From NCBI GenBank assembly GCA_041613315.1, contig JBFJHJ010000015.1, forward strand, positions 1,050 to 65,049: DNA of 64,000 nucleotides, read 5' to 3'. The stretch is from Gemmatimonadales bacterium. GTDB lineage: Bacteria > Gemmatimonadota > Gemmatimonadetes > Gemmatimonadales > GWC2-71-9. Below the pieces are notes generated by a model. The model had not been told where the DNA came from. It did no database searches and was given only the letters and a program-made list of their open reading frames with translations. A program made the position numbers and the translations under genes. This document shows, in pieces, positions 5,107 through 60,865 of the stretch (position 1 is its first letter; every line of letters starts with the position of its first letter).

Positions 5107-6567
5107 ATGGTAAGCCGACTGCGTCCGGGACACGCCCTCACGTTCGACGACGTGTTGCTGGTGCCGCGGCACGGAGCCGTACACCCCTCCGGGGTCGACC
5201 TGACCAGCCGCTTCACGCGCGGCATCGCGCTCAATATCCCCCTCGTCGCGGCGGCGATGGACACGGTCACCGAATCCGAGATGGCGATCGGCATGGCGCG
5301 CCTCGGCGGCATCGGTGTGATCCACAAGAACATGACGATCGACCGGCAGGCCGCGGAGGTGGATCGCGTGAAGCGCTCGGAGAGCGGCATGATCCTGAAT
5401 CCGATCACGCTGGGGCCCGATCGCTCCATCCGGGAGGCGGCGCAACTGATGGCGCGGTTCCGGATCTCGGGCGTGCCGATCGTTGATGACCGGGGACGCC
5501 TGGTGGGGATTCTCACGAACCGGGATCTCCAGTTCGAGCGCAACGTCGACCGGCCGATCGCGCAGGCGATGACGAAGGAGGGGCTGGTGACGGCCCCGGT
5601 GGGCACCACACTCGACGAAGCGGAGCGCATCCTCGGCGAGCACCGTATCGAGAAGTTGCCGGTGGTGGATGGGGGAGGGGTCCTCAAGGGGCTGATCACG
5701 GTCAAGGATATCTTCAAGCGCCGGCACTTCCCACACGCCAACAAGGACGAGCACGGCCGGCTCCGCGTCGCGGCGGCGGTGGGCGTCGGACGCGAGACGA
5801 AGAGCCGCGCCCGGGCGCTGCTGGATGCGGGCGTGGACGCGGTCGTCGTGGACTCGGCGCACGGTCATTCGGCGGGGGTGCTGGCGGCCGTCGCCGAGCT
5901 GCGTGAGGCGTTTCCGGACGCGCAGCTCGTGGCGGGCAACGTGGCGACGTTCGAGGGCGCGAAGGCACTGGCCGAGCTGGGAGTGGATGCGGTGAAGGTT
6001 GGGATCGGGCCTGGCTCGATCTGCACGACACGGGTGGTGACCGGCGTGGGGGTCCCACAGATCACGGCGGTGGTCGAGGCGGTGCGCGGCGCCGGCGACG
6101 TTCCAGTGATCGCCGACGGCGGTGTCAAGTACTCCGGTGACGCGGTGAAGGCGCTGGCGGCGGGCGCCGAGAGCGTGATGCTCGGATCGATGCTGGCCGG
6201 CACCGAGGAGAGCCCGGGAGAAAGCTTCCTGCTGGAGGGCCGCCGGTTCAAGACCGTGCGGGGGATGGGCTCGCTCACGGCGATGCAGGACGGCTCGGCC
6301 GATCGGTACTTCCAAGAGGGCGACATGTCCCCTCGCAAACTCGTGCCGGAGGGGATCGAAGGGCGCGTGCCGTACCGGGGCCCCGTGGCCGATGTCCTGT
6401 ATCAGGTGGCCGGCGGCATTCGCAGCGGGATGGGCTACTGCGGCTGCGCCACGCTGGCCGCGCTGCGCTGCGACACCGAGTTCGTGCAGGTCACCTCGGC
6501 CGGCCTCCGGGAGTCGCACCCCCACGACGTGGTCATCACGCGCGAAGCACCGAACTACTCGGTGTAA
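5107..6567 (+). CDS. guaB: IMP dehydrogenase
   Basis: [10 protein letters not shown]-terminus, tandem CBS region, catalytic loop [11 protein letters not shown] and C-terminal ...[17 protein letters not shown] lies 6 nt upstream of the ATG at 5107 (GTG at 5104 is also possible). Confidence 0.95.
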
Positions 6568-6576
6568 GACTACTCG

Positions 6577-6657
6577 CTATCCATTTTTCCGTCGTCCGTT
6601 TCCCGTTGTCCGTGGCGCGACGCACCACGGAAGACGGAGACCGGATCACGGACAACG
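6577..6657. repeat. Intergenic heptamer-array inverted repeat, copy 1
   Basis: Forward array: ctatccat ttttccgt cgtccgt ttcccgt tgtccgt (6577-6613). Inverted array: acggaag acggaga ccggatc acggaca acg (6627-6657). Shares the exact 11-mer CCGTCGTCCGT with copies 2 and 3. Shares a 16-mer with copy 3, in reverse-complement orientation. Confidence 0.6.
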
Positions 6658-6678
6658 CTGTACCGTGAGGAGCGGCCA

Positions 6679-7119
6679 ATGGCGGACCAAACACCCCAGT
6701 CCTACGCAAACCATAAGCGCATCGTGCCGGGCTTCCACTATGTGACGTTCGCGCTCCTGCTCATCCCCACGATCTGGTGGGTGTATCGCAGTATTCGGGC
6801 GTTCTCGGTGGATCACCTGATGCTGTTCGCAATGGGGGCCGGGGCGGTGATGCTCCTACTCTACACCCGGTCGTTCGCCACCAAGAATCAGGACCGGATC
6901 ATTCGGCTGGAGGAGCGCACTCGGCTCGAAGAGCTGCTGCCGCCCGAGCTGGTACCGCGGATCGGCGAGCTGACCACGGCGCAATGCGTGGCCATCCGCT
7001 TCGCGGCGGACGCTGAGGTGGAGGCCTTGGTGCGAGCGGTGTTGCACGAGGGGATCACGGATCGGGAAGCCATCAAGGGGCGAGTCCGGAGCTGGCGGGC
7101 GGACTACCAGCGGGTGTGA
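6679..7119 (+). CDS. Small membrane protein (two N-terminal TM helices plus helical C-terminal domain; DUF6526-like from memory)
   Basis: 146-aa ORF. SD GAGGAGCGG upstream. TM segments FHYVTFALLLIPTIWWVY and LMLFAMGAGAVMLLLY. Confidence 0.55.
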   Translation: MADQTPQSYANHKRIVPGFHYVTFALLLIPTIWWVYRSIRAFSVDHLMLFAMGAGAVMLLLYTRSFATKNQDRIIRLEERTRLEELLPPELVPRIGELTTAQCVAIRFAADAEVEALVRAVLHEGITDREAIKGRVRSWRADYQRV

Positions 7120-7223: not shown

Positions 7224-8969
7224 CTACAGGGAGATCGACCCCTTCCGAAACTGCGTCTCCCCGATCAGCGCGTTCACCAGCACCGCCCGCCCGCCCTTCG
7301 CCGCGGCCTTGGCCTCGGCCAGCACGCCCTCGACATCCTCCGCCCGATCCACCAGGAGTCCCGCACCGCCGTACCCCTCCGCCACCCGGTGATAATCGGT
7401 CCGCCGAAGCACGGTGCCGACGTCGTCCTTCAGCATCTCCCGTTGTCCCCGGGCGATCTGGGTCCAGCACGCGTCGGTTCCCACCACCGCGATAACGGGC
7501 ACTCCGTGACGCGCGAACGTGTCGAACTCGGCTAGACTGTAGGCCGCCGACCCGTCGCCGTAGAGAATCCACACCTCGGCCTCGGGACGACACAGCTTCG
7601 CGCCCAGCGCGAACCCGGCGCCGACGCCCAGCGTCCCGAACGGTCCGGGATCGAGGAAGCTGAGCGGCCTTCGCGGTGAGACGATGTAGGACGCCGTTGC
7701 CACGAAGTCGCCGCCGTCCAGCACCAGCACGCTCTCGTCGTCCAACGCCCGCTCGATGGACTGGCACAACATGAGCGGATTGATGAACTCGGTGTCCTCC
7801 GCGGCCAGCCGGTCGATCTGCGCGTTCCGCTCGCGATCCCGCTGGTGCAGCTGCTCCCGCCACTCGTCCCAACACTCGGGCGGGGTGGGCACCGCCGCGG
7901 CGAGCCTCCGGAGCAGTCGGCCGGGATCGCCCAACACGCCGACGGTGGGTCGCCGGTTCTGCACCAGATCCCGCCCGCTCCGGTTCACCGCCACGAGGGT
8001 CGCGCGCGAGTTGATGTCCCGGCCGTAGCCCAATCGGAAGTCGCAGGGGACGCCGGCCAGGATCACGAGGTCGGCGTCGCGCAGCGCCTCTCGGCGTCGG
8101 TGGCGGAGTTGCAGGCGATGCTCCCGGCCCAGGAGTCCCCGGGCGGAACCCGAAAGGTAGACGGGGATGCCCAACTGGTTCACGGCGGCCGCCAGCTCGC
8201 CAACCCCCTCGGGCTCGAGCAGCGTCTGGCTCCCGATCAGGAGTATGGGCCGGTGGGCTCCTCGCAGGTGCGCGGCGGCGCGCTCGACCTTGCGCTCCGC
8301 CGGGGTAGGAATCTCCGGTGCAACACACTTCGCAGGCGCCGGCCGATCGGCGCCACCGAACAGGTTCCTGAGATGCCGCCGGAGGTAGAGCCGCCGCAGT
8401 CTCCCCGCGAGCCCCGCCCCCCAAGCGTCATCGACCGCGTACCACTTCCGGATCTCGCGCTCCTCGTACAGCAGGTCCACCGGACACTCGACGAACACGG
8501 GACCGGGAACGTCACGCTGCGCGATGCGAAACGCGCCCGTCACGGCGGTCGGGAGATCTCGCACGCGGCCGACCGACACGGCGTGTTTCACGTGCGGTCG
8601 GAACAGGGCGAGCTGATCGATGTCCTGGAGCGCCCCTCGGCCCTTGAGGATGGTGGCGGCCGCGCCGCCCAGGAGGACGACAGGCATCTGGGCGAGTTGC
8701 GCGTTCTTGACGGCCGTGATCGCGTTCGTGGCACCCGGTCCGGCGGTCACGGCGGCGACGCCGGGCACGCCGGTGAGCCGTGCGACGGCGTCGGCGGCGA
8801 AGACCGCGCTCGCTTCGTCCCGGACATCCACGACGCGAATCCCGCGGTGCTTGGCCCCCACCAGGATCGGCGAGATATGCCCGCCGCACAGGGTGAACAG
8901 GAACCGCACGCCTTGCGCCGCGAGGACATCCGCGATCAGGGCGCCGCCGTTCGGCGCGCCGTCTACCAT
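7224..8969 (-). CDS. Thiamine-diphosphate-dependent enzyme (acetolactate synthase / 2-hydroxyacyl-CoA lyase / oxalyl-CoA decarboxylase family)
   Basis: 581 aa. N-terminal Pyr domain ([16 protein letters not shown]...[11 protein letters not shown]). C-terminal PP domain with a GDGSAAYS...E TPP-binding motif. Confidence 0.85.
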
Positions 8970-14012: not shown

Positions 14013-15101
14013 ATGGCAAGCCGACTGCAGGCCGAGGTCGCCGGCGCACTGACCAACGTGCGCAATCCCCGCGTGGACAACGATGTCATCTCGGCGGGGA
14101 TGGTTGACGAGCTCGTGATCGAGCCCGACGGGCGCGTCGCGCTCACCTTCCGTCTCTCGCGCGACGATCCGGCCAGCCTGGTGCGGGACGTGCGTCGTGC
14201 GGTGCGCGCGGTGGAGGGTGTGACCGACGTGACGATCAACGTTGTGGAGCCGCGGGCGGCCCCGGCGGCCGGAACGGCTCCGGCGGCGCCGCCCCGACCA
14301 CCCCGCCCCGCAGGCCTCCCGGAGCTCGGGACGGTGCTGGCGATCTCCAGCGGCAAGGGTGGCGTCGGGAAGTCGACGGTCGCGGCGAATCTCGCGGCCG
14401 AGCTCGCTCGCAGTGGCCGCCGAGTGGCGCTCATGGATGCCGACGTCTACGGGCCCAACATTCCGCGACTCTTCGGTCTGAGCGGCAAGCCTCCCGTCCG
14501 GCAGGGCAAGATCGTTCCCTTCGAGCGCTACGGCGTGAAGGTGATGTCCCTCGGCCTGCTCATCGACCGGGACAAGCCTGCCATCTGGCGCGGGCCGATC
14601 GTGACGCGGATCATCACCCAGTTCCTCCACGACGTGGACTGGGGCCCGCTCGACTACTTCGTCGTGGATCTCCCGCCCGGCACCGGTGACGCCCAGCTGT
14701 CGCTCGCGCAGACGGTCCACCTGAAGGGCGCCGTGATCGTGACGACGCCGCAGGAGATGGCGGTCGGTGACGCCCTGCGCGGCGCCAAGATGTTCGAGAG
14801 CGTGGGCGTCCCCGTACTCGGGATCGTCGAGAACATGAGCTACTTCGTCTGTCCCCATTGCGAAGAGCGGAGCGACGTGTTCCTCACGGGCGGCGGGCAG
14901 CGGTTGGCCGCCGAGCTGGGTGTGCCGCTCCTCGGGCAGATTCCCCTGCAGGCCGGCATGACCGCGCAGCAGGACGAGGGTCAGCCGGTGGTCGTCTCCG
15001 CACCGGATTCCCCCGCAGGCCAGGCGCTCGCTGCCATCGCGGAGGAAGTCGAGCGGCGGGCGGGCGGCAAGAGCGTGGCGCTGCCGATCGTCACGGGGTA
15101 A
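14013..15101 (+). CDS. apbC: Mrp/ApbC/NBP35-type iron-sulfur cluster carrier ATPase with N-terminal DUF59-like domain
   Basis: Deviant Walker A SGKGGVGKST, a CPHC cluster-ligand motif (FVCPHCEERSD) and an N-terminal MIP18/DUF59-like segment. Confidence 0.9.
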   Translation: MASRLQAEVAGALTNVRNPRVDNDVISAGMVDELVIEPDGRVALTFRLSRDDPASLVRDVRRAVRAVEGVTDVTINVVEPRAAPAAGTAPAAPPRPPRPAGLPELGTVLAISSGKGGVGKSTVAANLAAELARSGRRVALMDADVYGPNIPRLFGLSGKPPVRQGKIVPFERYGVKVMSLGLLIDRDKPAIWRGPIVTRIITQFLHDVDWGPLDYFVVDLPPGTGDAQLSLAQTVHLKGAVIVTTPQEMAVGDALRGAKMFESVGVPVLGIVENMSYFVCPHCEERSDVFLTGGGQRLAAELGVPLLGQIPLQAGMTAQQDEGQPVVVSAPDSPAGQALAAIAEEVERRAGGKSVALPIVTG

Positions 15102-15105
15102 CCGC

Positions 15106-15218
15106 ATCCCGTCGTCCGTGATCCGTGATCCGTTTTTTGCCAGCGACGATGACCTCCCTCGTAGGTGTCGTCGGCCCTGCGTCGCACGCGGACCACGGGC
15201 CACGGACAATGGATAACG
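15106..15218. repeat. Intergenic heptamer-array inverted repeat, copy 2
   Basis: Forward array: atcccgt cgtccgt gatccgt gatccgt (15106-15133), followed by a T6 run. Inverted array: cggacca cgggcca cggacaa tggataa cg (15189-15218). Contains CCGTCGTCCGT (15109-15119). Confidence 0.6.
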
Positions 15219-15219
15219 T

Positions 15220-15975
15220 GTGTCCACCGCTATCACGCTCCTCACCGACTTCGGACTGTCCGACAGCTACGTCGCCGAGGTGAAGGCCGTCCTGCTACGG
15301 GACGCGCCGGGCGTACCGATCGTGGACGTGTCTCATGACATCCCGCGGGGCGATGTCCGGGCGGCCCAGTACCTGCTCGGGCGCACGTGGCACCGGTTCC
15401 CGGAGGGGACGGTGCACGTCGTGGTGGTGGATCCAGGTGTCGGCACGGACCGCCGCGCGCTGGCCGCGGCCCGCGGGGGTCACGGGTTCGTCGCGCCGGA
15501 CAACGGCGTCCTCGGCCCCGTGCTCACCGGCGCCCGGATCGTGGCGCTGGAAATCCCGCCCGCCGCCGCGCCCACGTTTCACGGGCGGGATGTCTTCGCG
15601 CCGGCGGCGGCCCGGCTGGCCCGCGGTGAGGCCCTCGAGCGCGTCGGCCTGCGGGTGACGGATCCGGTGACGGGGCCGCTTCCCGAGCCGACGACGAGCC
15701 CGGACGGTGCGGTCGGCGAAGTGGTGTATGTGGACCGGTTCGGTACACTGGTGACCAATATCGGTGCCGCGCTCGTCGCCGGAGCGGTGGAGGCGATCCT
15801 CCCCGAGGGGCGTCGCGCGCGGTTCGGCCACACCTTCGGGGATGTGGTGCCCGGGGCGTTAGTCGCCTTCGTGGGGTCCGGCGGTACGGTGGAGGTCGCC
15901 GTCCGGGATGGCTCGGCCGCCACGCTCACTGGGACGGGCGTGGGCGCGGTGGTGCGCGTCGCTCGAGCGCCGTGA
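15220..15975 (+). CDS. SAM hydrolase / SAM-dependent halogenase family protein (DUF62, S-adenosyl-L-methionine hydroxide adenosyltransferase-like)
   Basis: N-terminal ITLLTDFGLSDSYVAEVKAV and VVVVDPGVGT motifs characteristic of the family. Confidence 0.8.
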   Translation: MSTAITLLTDFGLSDSYVAEVKAVLLRDAPGVPIVDVSHDIPRGDVRAAQYLLGRTWHRFPEGTVHVVVVDPGVGTDRRALAAARGGHGFVAPDNGVLGPVLTGARIVALEIPPAAAPTFHGRDVFAPAAARLARGEALERVGLRVTDPVTGPLPEPTTSPDGAVGEVVYVDRFGTLVTNIGAALVAGAVEAILPEGRRARFGHTFGDVVPGALVAFVGSGGTVEVAVRDGSAATLTGTGVGAVVRVARAP

Positions 15976-26974: not shown

Positions 26975-27745
26975 GTGAGCTGTGAGCGGCCAGCCGCAGC
27001 CGACGTCGTCGGGTCAGCCGCCGAGGCCGAAGCCGAAGCGCAAGCACCGGAAGCCGGAGCGTTCGCGTCCACCCCAGCGCACCACCCACAGCTCACCCCC
27101 TCCGCCGAGCGCGCCACGGCATCCCCACAAGACGCCGGCACCGAACCGGAGGGGCCGCTGAGCGCCGGTAGCCCCTGGGTGCTGGCGGTGACCGGTGCCT
27201 CAGGTGCGCCATATGCCGTGCGCCTCTTGGAGACCCTGGCACGGGCCAAGGTGCCGCTCCTGCTCGTGATCTCCCGACACGGCTGGCGGTTGCTCGAGAC
27301 CGAGGCGGGCATCTCGTCCGACCATGAGCTCCGTGCGGCGACGGGTGGCGATTGGTCGAGCATCACGGTCTGCGACGACGACGACCGGGGCGCGGCGCCC
27401 GCCTCGGGCTCGAGTCCCAGCGCCGGGATGGTCATTTGCCCATGCTCCATGGGGACGGTCTCGGCGATCGCGCAGGGCTCGAGCCGCTCGCTGATCGAGC
27501 GCGCGGCAGACGTGGCCCTGAAGGAGCGGCGCCGGCTCATCCTCGTGCCCCGGGAGTCGCCGCTCTCGCTCGTGCACCTCAGGAACCTCACGAGGGTGAC
27601 CGAAGCGGGAGCTACCGTCATCCCGGCGGCGCCGGGCTTCTACCACCGCCCCACCACCGTCGCGCAGCTCATCGATTTCGTGGTCCAGCGGGTGCTCGAT
27701 CACATGCGCGTGGAGGTGAGTCTCGTGGCCCGATGGAAGGGATAG
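26975..27745 (+). CDS. ubiX: UbiX-type flavin prenyltransferase
   Basis: Core begins WVLAVTGASGAPYAVRLL, then ICPCSMGTVSAIA and RRLILVPRESPLS. The first ~68 codons are low-complexity Ala/Glu/Pro, and an in-frame GTG at 27179 would give a typical ~188-aa UbiX. Confidence 0.85.
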   Translation: MSCERPAAADVVGSAAEAEAEAQAPEAGAFASTPAHHPQLTPSAERATASPQDAGTEPEGPLSAGSPWVLAVTGASGAPYAVRLLETLARAKVPLLLVISRHGWRLLETEAGISSDHELRAATGGDWSSITVCDDDDRGAAPASGSSPSAGMVICPCSMGTVSAIAQGSSRSLIERAADVALKERRRLILVPRESPLSLVHLRNLTRVTEAGATVIPAAPGFYHRPTTVAQLIDFVVQRVLDHMRVEVSLVARWKG

Positions 27746-27832
27746 CACCGTCGTCCGTTGTCCGTGATCCGCTATCCGTCTGTGAGCGTGGTAACCGGGG
27801 TGGTCGGACCATGGATGACGGAGAACGAGCGG
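27745..27832. repeat. Intergenic heptamer-array inverted repeat, copy 3
   Basis: Forward array: gcaccgt cgtccgt tgtccgt gatccgc tatccgt (27745-27779). Inverted array: cggacca tggatga cggagaa cgagcgg (27805-27832). CCGTCGTCCGT lies at 27748-27758. The 16-mer cgttgtccgtgatccg (27756-27771) equals the reverse complement of 6642-6657. Confidence 0.6.
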
Positions 27833-27842
27833 GGGTCGTAGG

Positions 27843-28319
27843 GTGCGATTGGGGATCATCTCCGATACACACGGCACGCTCCGGACGGAGGTCTTCACGA
27901 TCTTCGCGGAGGTGGACCACATTCTCCACGGCGGCGATGTCGGTCCCGTCGATCTCCTCGTCGAGCTGGAGGCGCTGGCGCCGGTGACGGCGGTGTACGG
28001 CAACACCGACGGGGTCGAGCTCCGGCAGCGGTGTCCCCAAGTGGCGGAGCTCGACTTGGACGACTTCCGCATCGTCGTGACGCATGGCGATCAGTTTGGG
28101 TCGCCTACGCCAGCCAAGCTCCATGCCGCCTTTCCGACGGCCGAGATCATCGTGTTCGGCCACACCCACCGCCCGCTGCTTCAGCTCGTGGACAGGACCG
28201 TCACGGTGATGAACCCCGGCTCGGCGGGCGCCGCCCGTTTCGGCATCCCGCCGTCGGTAGGCATCATGGAGTTGGAGCCCGGGATCCCGCCGCGCGCGCG
28301 GCTGGTGCCGCTGGTGTAG
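27843..28319 (+). CDS. YfcE/MJ0936-family metallophosphoesterase
   Basis: MRLGIISDTHG, HGGD and GHTH motifs in the canonical order. Confidence 0.8.
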   Translation: MRLGIISDTHGTLRTEVFTIFAEVDHILHGGDVGPVDLLVELEALAPVTAVYGNTDGVELRQRCPQVAELDLDDFRIVVTHGDQFGSPTPAKLHAAFPTAEIIVFGHTHRPLLQLVDRTVTVMNPGSAGAARFGIPPSVGIMELEPGIPPRARLVPLV

Positions 28320-43503: not shown

Positions 43504-43594
43504 CGGGAAGGACGGAACGGGCGGTAGGGGCGGCAACGGTGTGGTCGCGTCGACCCACCCGCCCCGACCGCTGGGCGATGAGGAATGCGGGGCG

Positions 43595-55851: not shown

Positions 55852-55885
55852 GGGTTCTTGCGCGCTCCCGTTCAGGTTACAGGTG

Positions 55886-55914
55886 TTGACACCCCAAAAG
55901 CCGATGAATAGATT
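55886..55914 (+). promoter_or_regulatory. Sigma70-type promoter TTGACA-N17-TAGATT
   Basis: Exact -35 at 55886-55891, a 17-nt spacer, and TAGATT at 55909-55914. Sits inside the only AT-rich intergenic island and faces the apbE operon. Confidence 0.5.
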
Positions 55915-55929
55915 CGGGAAAACTCTACT

Positions 55930-55949
55930 TGAGAATGATTCTCATTCTC
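55930..55949. promoter_or_regulatory. Fur-family operator-like palindrome
   Basis: TGAGAAT-G-ATTCTCA (55930-55944) is a perfect 7-1-7 inverted repeat, matching TGATAATnATTATCA at 13/15. The overlapping GAGAATGA-TTC-TCATTCTC (55931-55949) matches the 19-bp Fur box GATAATGATAATCATTATC at 15/19. Confidence 0.55.
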
Positions 55950-56041
55950 CATGGCTTGGCTGAGACCGTACCTCTAACGCCAGATCCCATCACTCCACCA
56001 ATCCCACCCTTGCCGGAATTCGGAATTCTGAACGTTTTTCA

Positions 56042-60266: not shown

Positions 60267-60865
60267 GACGGCCTGACCTTCCGACCGCCTGGCCGGCCGA
60301 CGAGCCGCGCGATCGCCTTGCGCAGCGCTTCGATGCCTTCGCGTGTCTGGGCGCTCGTCACAACGCACTGGTCCTCCGGCAGTTCCGTGGCCGCCAGGAT
60401 GGCGTGCACCCGTTCGGTGCGGCGTGCCCGGGGGAGCTTGTCCGCCTTGGTCACGGCCAGCAACACCGGCACGCCGCGTTGGGCGACCCGCTGGGCGGCG
60501 GCCATGTCGTCGGGTGACGGGTCACGGCGCACGTCCACCAGCCACACTACCCCGGCCAGTGTGCGCCGGTCCGAAAGATAGTCGCCAATCACGGTGAGGA
60601 AGCGGGCGCGCTCGTCCTTCGACACGCGTGCGTACCCGTAGCCCGGGAGGTCCACCAGGTAGTAGCGGCCGTCCACCCGGTACACGTTGCACAGCCGGGT
60701 CTTGCCGGGCGAGCGACTCGTCCGGGCGATGGTCCGGCGGCCGACGAGCGCGTTCAAGAGGGACGACTTGCCGACGTTGGAGCGGCCCAGGAACGCGATC
60801 TCGGGGAGGGCGGGCTGGAGGCGGAAATCGGCGGCCGGGAAGCTGCCGATGAAGTCGACGATCAG
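60263..60865 (-). CDS. engB: Ribosome-biogenesis GTPase YihA/EngB
   Basis: [20 protein letters not shown] (G1), DLPGYGY (G3) and TKADK (G4). There is no ATG/GTG/TTG between the clpX stop and G1, so the 5-prime end is either CTG at 60865 or ATG at 60928 (inside clpX). Confidence 0.8.

Follow-up and report, generated by a model that had tools for sequence, protein, structure and literature searches.

Convergent heptamer arrays in operon junctions of a Gemmatimonadales bacterium: candidate intercistronic RNA stem-loops

What is the repeat element that lies just downstream of guaB in a Gemmatimonadales bacterium, how did it come to be there, and does it affect the genes around it? The DNA analysed here, termed the window, is a stretch of 64,000 nucleotides of a metagenome-assembled genome, with a G+C content of 70% (GenBank assembly GCA_041613315.1, contig JBFJHJ010000015.1, positions 1,050 to 65,049 of the forward strand). 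The nearest named relatives of its GuaB protein are Gemmatimonadales, and a contig of a sister strain (assembly GCA_041578975.1) is 99.93% identical to it. The element consists of a tandem array of heptamers of the form NNTCCGT, a loop, and a second array of the same heptamer in inverted orientation (ACGGANN). Three such elements, copies 1 to 3, are found in the window. The reading favoured here, with a probability of roughly 0.42, is that they are heptamer-repeat palindromes gained in operon junctions, which would be transcribed and act as intercistronic RNA stem-loops, either as a barrier to decay, as a gate on the downstream start codon, or as both.

The three elements are a genuine family within the window. 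All follow a common plan, in which a loop of 13–54 nt separates an array of four or five NNTCCGT units from one of about four ACGGANN units (Table 1). The exact 11-mer CCGTCGTCCGT occurs on the + strand at 6589, 15109 and 27748, which is 21, 7 and 2 nt past + strand stop codons. These three matches compare with 0.20 expected, and only 1 of 100 shuffles reached three. In addition, the 16-mer at 6642–6657 is the exact reverse complement of 27756–27771, a match between opposite arms of copies 1 and 3. The two-unit pattern TCCGTNNTCCGT, with no more than one mismatch, is matched 20 times (7.3 expected; none of 100 shuffles gave as many), and 17 of these matches fall within the three elements. A four-unit pattern under the same mismatch limit gives 9 matches compared to 0.08 expected. 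Eight of them lie within the elements, while the ninth, at 60511, sits in a GTPase coding region and is attributed to chance. Tandem Repeats Finder (TRF) reports a period of 7 at 6588–6613, 15115–15133 and 15189–15207, and the 4–5 head-to-tail units of each arm exceed the number expected by chance, as in long heptanucleotide simple sequence repeats (SSRs). An earlier note on this DNA had described the units and spacing of copy 1 and its distance from the guaB stop, the 11-mer as a recurrence unlikely by chance, the 16-mer, and the 7-nt periodicity, and all of these descriptions hold. No full-length consensus was found among the three copies, whose common parts are the heptamer cores, the 11-mer and the 16-mer.

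The elements occupy a consistent position relative to genes. All three fill spacers between + strand genes, 97–118 nt wide. The window has five co-directional gaps of 85–120 nt, three of which hold an element. The stems start 20, 7 and 1 nt past the stop codon in copies 1, 2 and 3, and end 26, 7 and approximately 8–13 nt before the next start codon, while the right arms finish 4–26 nt upstream of the start codons. In copy 1, the Shine-Dalgarno sequence gaggag and the ATG at 6679 come after the right array. Among the flanking genes, the flavoprotein gene upstream of copy 3 appears to be UbiX-like, judging by its position beside a UbiA gene in relatives.

Table 1. Coordinates of the three heptamer elements, their parts and their flanking genes in the window.
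Feature	Position	Strand	Details
guaB (IMP dehydrogenase)	5107..6567	+	5' neighbour of copy 1; stop 6565-6567
Copy 1, whole element	6578-6657	+	80 nt, loop 13 nt
Copy 1, left array	6578..6613	+	TATCCAT, TTTTCCGT, CGTCCGT, TTCCCGT, TGTCCGT; 10 nt past guaB stop
Copy 1, loop	6614..6626	+	13 nt
Copy 1, right inverted array	6627..6657	+	ACGGAAG, ACGGAGA, CCGGATC, ACGGACA, ACG
DUF6526 protein gene	6679..7119	+	3' neighbour of copy 1
Mrp/ApbC-type Fe-S P-loop NTPase gene	14013..15101	+	5' neighbour of copy 2; stop 15099-15101
Copy 2, whole element	15106-15215	+	110 nt, loop 54 nt
Copy 2, left array	15106..15133	+	ATCCCGT, CGTCCGT, GATCCGT, GATCCGT; begins 4 nt past stop
Copy 2, loop	15134..15187	+	54 nt; contains a small hairpin of its own
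Copy 2, right array	15188..15215	+	GCGGACC, ACGGGCC, ACGGACA, ATGGATA; 4 nt before GTG 15220
SAM hydroxide adenosyltransferase gene	15220..15975	+	3' neighbour of copy 2; GTG start 15220
Flavoprotein gene (PF02441)	26975..27745	+	5' neighbour of copy 3; stop 27743-27745
Copy 3, whole element	27746-27831	+	86 nt, loop 24 nt
Copy 3, left array	27746..27779	+	CACCGT, CGTCCGT, TGTCCGT, GATCCGC, TATCCGT; immediately after stop
Copy 3, loop	27780..27803	+	24 nt
Copy 3, right array and tail	27804..27842	+	TCGGACC, ATGGATG, ACGGAGA, ACGAGCG; 11-nt G-rich tail to GTG 27843
Metallophosphoesterase (Metallophos_2) gene	27843..28319	+	3' neighbour of copy 3; GTG start 27843

The same junctions in relatives indicate how the elements arose. 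At the copy 2 junction, a relative with a GuaB that is 86% identical (locus L124) has only 6 nt between the mrp stop and the adenosyltransferase start, and the copy 3 junction measures 4 nt in one relative (L617) and 3 nt in another (L619). Since these gene pairs lie 3–6 nt apart in relatives, the elements arose by gain within tight junctions of operons. They are capable of long persistence and also of decay. At the copy 3 junction, L615 and L616 carry an element with identical geometry (97 nt, consisting of 5 units, a 24-nt loop, 4 units and an 11-nt tail). In the copy 1 region (6560–6690, 131 nt), 10 independent assemblies of the species show no difference at all. At the guaB junction of L611–L614, where the DUF6526 protein is 68% identical, the left arm comprises five units, the loop is long and the right arm has decayed. 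No target duplication was seen when the filled junctions of copies 2 and 3 were compared with the empty ones in relatives. Similarly, no clean 7-nt indel was seen in copy 1 across the 10 assemblies, between copy 3 and L615, or at the remodelled guaB junction of L611. In the loop of copy 2, positions 15137–15138 are TT in the window and CC in the sister assembly (L121), where the change makes TTTTTTG a fifth unit, TTTCCGC. These are 2 of just 12 differences across 16.5 kb.

A separate observation is that the copy 3 operon junction has repeatedly gained structured inserts across relatives. In L620 (1341–1500) and L621 (1107–1266), it is occupied by an unrelated GC-rich spacer of 160 nt, which folds at -87 kcal/mol and contains no heptamers.

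Are these elements maintained because of what they do? In the leading alternative, which is rather doubtful, they are functionless or selfish DNA: by-products of slippage, with the inversion and the cores kept by template switching at quasi-palindromes or by gene conversion, and they persist at operon junctions only as compact hairpins that are tolerated there. The comparison of copy 3 with L615, in which the downstream flanking protein is 85% identical, speaks against this. In an ungapped comparison of 97 nt, 38 of 45 core positions (TCCGT/ACGGA) are identical (84%), compared to 5 of 17 NN positions and 8 of 24 loop positions (Fisher p = 1.6e-6 for the core excess). Third codon positions of the downstream flanking gene are only 51% identical, which means that neutral sites are near saturation. 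Moreover, there is not one indel in the 97 nt, and neither the 7-nt register nor the overall length has changed, at a divergence where the NN positions, the loop and the third codon positions are near random. Selfish DNA also sits poorly with the NN dinucleotides, which differ among the units of one array and thus show no recent homogenisation, with the lack of unit-number polymorphism in copy 1 in the 10 assemblies, and with spacers of 3–6 nt, which hold no seed for array growth by slippage.

The pairing potential of the arrays is considerable. For each of the three spacers, the predicted fold is a single long hairpin (-47.3, -51.9 and -42.9 kcal/mol for copies 1, 2 and 3; z-scores -3.2, -2.9 and -1.9), in agreement with the long imperfect hairpin proposed in the earlier note. 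The stem helices are 5–6 bp long and broken about every 7th base. The sense folds of copy 3 and of its L615 version are alike (-42.9 and -44.3 kcal/mol), and the antisense folds of both are weaker (-31.7 and -37.9 kcal/mol). A scan of the three element regions found no sigma-70-like promoter, and the number of terminator-like sites composed of a hairpin and a T-run is 0 in each of them. The hexamer TTGCCA in the copy 2 loop was considered as a promoter and rejected, as the scan finds no promoter-like site there and the hexamer is absent in the sister strain. The whole window gave no Rfam match at the gathering threshold, and E-value mode returned for copies 1 and 2 only weak matches to miRNA precursors (generic hairpins), far under threshold.

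In the favoured reading, the elements would form a lineage-specific family composed of an N-R-TCCGT array, a loop and a second such array in inverted orientation. They would have been placed in formerly very short spacers of co-transcribed genes, as demonstrated for copies 2 and 3, and from this location we infer that they are transcribed within polycistronic mRNA. In the RNA, the arms would pair as helices of 5–6 bp (GUCCGU/ACGGAC), interrupted approximately every 7th nucleotide, and the base of the stem would draw the upstream stop codon (1–20 nt before the stem) near the downstream start codon (4–26 nt after it). Such a 'punctuation' stem-loop, if it folds in vivo, may shield the upstream cistron from decay in the 3'-to-5' direction. 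Alternatively or in addition, it may act as a gate on the downstream start that is opened by the ribosome terminating at the base of the stem. It would not be a transcription terminator. The arrays themselves belong to the known bacterial class of heptanucleotide SSRs, the abundance of which is credited in the literature to slippage.

The architecture is found well beyond this lineage. A scan of one genome per species with four phased units gave at least 120 loci in many phyla, and a metagenome scan likewise provides a lower bound only. In genomes and metagenomes together, 32 non-redundant elements have a TCCGT array followed by an ACGGA array no more than 150 nt away. The named genomes among their sources are from Acidobacteriota, Planctomycetota, Myxococcota, Pseudomonadota and Actinomycetota, and the others are untyped metagenome contigs; a Chloroflexota locus has the same plan. 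At least six other phyla thus carry this architecture, although the taxonomic breadth partly reflects the choice of the TCCGT core as query. The typical order is a stop codon, 0–20 nt, the arms, 0–25 nt, and a start codon. The orientation of flanking genes, for which a heuristic of open frames and G+C at third codon positions (GC3) gives a rough guide, was co-directional for 15, divergent for 5 and convergent for 0 in one pass (0/20 convergent) and 13, 5 and 1 in another (1/19). A whole-locus gene caller was wrong for approximately 1/6 of pattern-derived loci, and its coding and intergenic counts were not used. Units with TCAGT/ACTGA are mixed with TCCGT/ACGGA units at five loci (L008, L100, L172, L210 and L207), and an Anabaena locus (L009) has (TGTCCGT)9 followed by inverted units of the ACTGAC type.

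Arrays of the TCCGT core with a single arm are common beside start codons. Arrays of this core were also seen, by eye, apparently beside the 5' end of a 23S rRNA gene (L220, ~1069–1110) and beside a tRNA gene (L092, minus strand, oriented 7340–7363), both putative. In a viral collection, TCCGT cores at periods 6, 7 and 8 gave at least 119, at least 120 and 110 matches, respectively, counts from which no enrichment comparison is possible. The period-7 four-unit arrays are in at least 120 IMG/VR viral contigs (L249–L368), with an inverted array nearby in, for example, L250 and L300.

Several observations weigh against a role as an RNA stem-loop. Over 17 elements with assigned gene direction, the sense RNA is no more stable than the antisense RNA, and the arms taken by themselves show a mean difference of +2.1 kcal/mol, with antisense the more stable (p = 0.05). 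There is thus no general G-U signature of RNA-level selection, as would be expected of selfish DNA. The unit consensus over 30 elements is N1-N2-TCCGT, in which N2 is mainly G or A. In unit pairs, N2 is complementary to its partner in 66% (46% expected) and N1 in 39% (27% expected). However, unit-by-unit NN complementarity is no better than in within-element unit shuffles, and the arms therefore share a flavour and are not copies of each other. At L207, L094 and L009, one arm is wholly TCCGT and the opposite arm wholly ACTGA, which suggests arms that are homogenised internally and not compensated between each other. The element can also be missing or degenerate at orthologous junctions: at the guaB junction, L608–L610 have a 157-nt spacer without an array, and the L611 fold is no better than shuffles. 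Such arms and such absent or degenerate copies, the 3–6 nt junctions included, would suit selfish DNA. In addition, the copy 1 stem starts 20 nt past the stop and its Shine-Dalgarno sequence lies outside the stem, so that the ribosome-gating version does not suit every copy.

Core conservation itself could reflect gene conversion among family copies instead of selection. The relevant case is a second orthologous set, found in metagenomes at the E1-beta|E2 junction of a 2-oxo-acid dehydrogenase operon, where the cores are kept between L136, L145 and L248 on one side and L222 on the other. Their flanks are approximately 89% identical and their right arms agree at every position, NN included, while the left-arm NN positions and the 8–9 nt loop are wholly different. 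This looks like replacement or conversion of half the element rather than point mutation, and such rewriting of one arm and the loop between close relatives favours selfish DNA. Because of this half-replacement, the core conservation is explicable by selection and by copying among family members alike.

How do these arrays compare with repeats that are already known? The window elements are a Gemmatimonadota member of a known, unexplained class, namely intergenic heptanucleotide arrays in convergent pairs. Heptanucleotides are reported to be the most abundant long SSR class in most bacterial genomes, for which polymerase slippage has been proposed as the cause (Mrazek 2007, as summarised in PMC4679880), and this published explanation would apply equally to selfish DNA. 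The closest described analogue is found in Xanthomonas, where GGGAATC forms 186 arrays, typically of about 4 units, and 89–93% of them are intergenic (Rehm et al. 2015, PMC4692102). Their mean distance to the end of the upstream open reading frame (ORF) is 28 nt, most of them sit between co-directional ORFs, and 70 to 75 convergent array pairs have stem-loop potential; they are transcribed, and no function was found (PMC4692102), which again suits selfish DNA. The intergenic Nostoc heptamer GGGGA(C/T)T has been treated alongside them (PMC4692102). As in these two families, the TCCGT elements have tandem 7-nt units with variable positions, are found with all functional gene classes, and vary in length and sequence between related species. 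Copies 1–3 also resemble the Xanthomonas convergent pairs in that arrays of the same heptamer converge in an intergenic space near the upstream ORF end, between co-directional ORFs. In contrast, the GGGAATC unit is G-rich and capable of forming G-quadruplexes, on which PMC4692102 focuses, while the NNTCCGT and ACGGANN units contain no G tracts of three or more (GG at most). The Xanthomonas repeats further belong to another phylum, and 16% of them lie between convergent genes compared to almost none of the TCCGT elements.

A second comparison is provided by the TAACTGA repeats of marine Beggiatoaceae, cyanobacteria and Bacteroidetes, which mostly lie a few nucleotides upstream of start codons (MacGregor 2015, PMC4679880). 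They have been proposed to replace Shine-Dalgarno sequences, with S1, Csp and CsrA suggested as binders (PMC4679880). They too are intergenic arrays of 2–6 heptamers beside genes of any function, and their opposite strand reads (TA)TCAGT, which is the NNTCCGT frame with one core change. Unlike the elements described here, they are AT-rich and almost all direct, with 1 indirect repeat in 170 sets, and an inverted partner is not part of the family. The cyanobacterial STRR (short tandemly repeated repetitive) sequences are dispersed intergenic tandem heptamers as well, and are described for Calothrix, in a citing source, as unexplained in function. The Anabaena locus L009, with its (TGTCCGT)9 array, resembles them. 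STRR sequences differ in that their unit sequences are other ones and inverted pairing is not in their definition. In a Nostoc preprint, contiguous heptamers are reported to affect recF and recO expression, and no partner was identified. For published heptanucleotide repeats in general, no function or binding partner has been established. A literature search for TCCGT-type units found no paper, and a string search for TCCGT dimers gave primers only.

A protein-binding array is an unlikely alternative. The heptamers would then be 7-nt footprints on single-stranded RNA or DNA for a cold-shock-domain protein, with one OB fold per heptamer, or for a HutP/TRAP-like ring, and a bound protein would either melt the hairpin or lock it, with regulation of the downstream gene as the outcome. 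This would account for the fact that conservation concerns the core motif and the exactness of its 7-nt phasing rather than pairing at every position, and for the single-arm arrays beside start codons. The Beggiatoa repeats, with their shared frame and their proposed binders, point the same way, as does CspB, which is reported to bind with one protein per heptamer. HutP binds UAG triplets that recur at 7-nt intervals and opens the hairpin of a terminator. HutP and TRAP sites and Csp heptamers are like the window elements in being short RNA motifs of fixed period whose occupation remodels a hairpin, a resemblance only, and they differ in that the motif is another one and the sites of the window elements are paired in the stem. 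Since the cores pair in the stem, their conservation does not tell binding from pairing. Furthermore, the sequence specificity of Csp proteins is weak and T-rich, and the same core in at least seven phyla demands a very widely conserved binder. It is improbable that N-R-TC(C/A)GT in 7-nt register is in fact the binding register of such a widely conserved single-strand nucleic-acid protein, so that the arrays are protein-melted switches that set the expression ratio of cistrons. The carriers of a binder of this kind, a cold-shock-domain-like OB fold or a HutP/TRAP-like ring, would have to include Gemmatimonadota, Acidobacteriota, Planctomycetota, Myxococcota, Chloroflexota, Actinomycetota and Pseudomonadota, and for the TCAGT cores Beggiatoaceae and cyanobacteria.

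Could the elements have arrived as mobile units? A miniature element related to MITEs (miniature inverted-repeat transposable elements) or REPINs, inserted as a unit by a transposase encoded elsewhere, is a little less likely again than a binding array. The copies are dispersed, with the 11-mer at the left end of all three and the 16-mer common to opposite arms, and junctions are clearly filled or empty among relatives; in another lineage, the copy 3 junction has even received the unrelated 160-nt structured insert. However, the sizes and loops of the copies are not uniform, there is neither a full-length consensus nor a target-site duplication between filled and empty sites, and two loci on related metagenome contigs, L135 (648–792, minus strand) and L218 (6882–7020), are incompatible with insertion of a unit. 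Here, the left array is an in-frame 21-nt segment inside miaA and encodes PSSV(I/V)R immediately after the Pfam IPPT domain. The 'loop' codes for the conserved C-terminal tail of MiaA, and the right array shares bases with the miaA stop and lies directly against the start of the next gene, which begins MRIGITCYPTYGGSG (with a TAATG overlap in L135). As the arms flank native miaA coding DNA, they cannot have come as one inserted unit.

The repetitive extragenic palindromic (REP), BIME and REPIN sequences of Enterobacteria and Pseudomonas are imperfect palindromes in transcribed spacers, often right after stop codons. As stem-loops in mRNA, REP sequences stabilise upstream cistrons or affect translation. 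The window elements resemble them in position and predicted effect. REP sequences have a conserved consensus of 20–40 nt, an associated RAYT transposase and no internal 7-nt periodicity, in contrast to the window copies, which are heptamer mosaics of differing length without a common full-length consensus. The function of REP sequences is still debated in a 2026 preprint. From the suggestion in the earlier note of a REP- or MITE-like repeat, what stands is the dispersal, the hairpin and the REP-like position, while the MITE half is weakened for the reasons given above.

It is very improbable that the elements are U-tract-independent intrinsic terminators or attenuators at the 3' ends of guaB, mrp and the flavoprotein gene, another role suggested in the earlier note: hairpin-only terminators have been proposed for GC-rich bacteria and the strong GC-rich hairpins do begin 1–20 nt past stops, but the three regions lack a T-run, the next gene follows after 4–26 nt with neither room nor motif for a promoter, the gene pairs are contiguous (3–6 nt, operonic) in relatives, related elements are nearly absent between convergent genes, and the last unit contains the start codon at some loci (the ATG of L244).

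To the heptamer literature, these elements add a clean case of gain inside tight operon junctions. They also add an orthologous pair in which the cores, the 7-nt phasing and the length are fixed while the free positions are randomised, which makes function testable. Should the elements determine how strongly adjacent cistrons are expressed relative to one another, they would have to be part of operon annotation and expression models in Gemmatimonadota, Acidobacteriota and Planctomycetota. If a conserved binder did exist, it would account for the dominance of heptamers among the long repeats of bacteria. If the elements are inert, they are still usable as markers of lineage and of junction turnover.

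Other repeats in the window are unrelated to the heptamer elements. The earlier note had listed a weaker half-copy downstream of glmS, at 43504–43523, which is not a family member: it has just one ACGGA, none of the array scans detects it, and its spacer forms an unrelated GC-rich hairpin (z = 0). This hairpin corresponds to a GC-rich inverted repeat, GGCGGTAGGGGCGG ... CCGCCCCGACCGC, at 43520–43571. A short CGGAATT repeat at 56014 was also considered and is unrelated. Finally, a 19-nt palindrome, GAGAATGATTCTCATTCTC, lies at 55931–55949 in an AT-richer gap between divergent genes (55852–56041). By manual count, 15 of its 19 positions agree with the classical Fur box GATAATGATAATCATTATC, and the gap is possibly an iron-regulated divergent promoter region.

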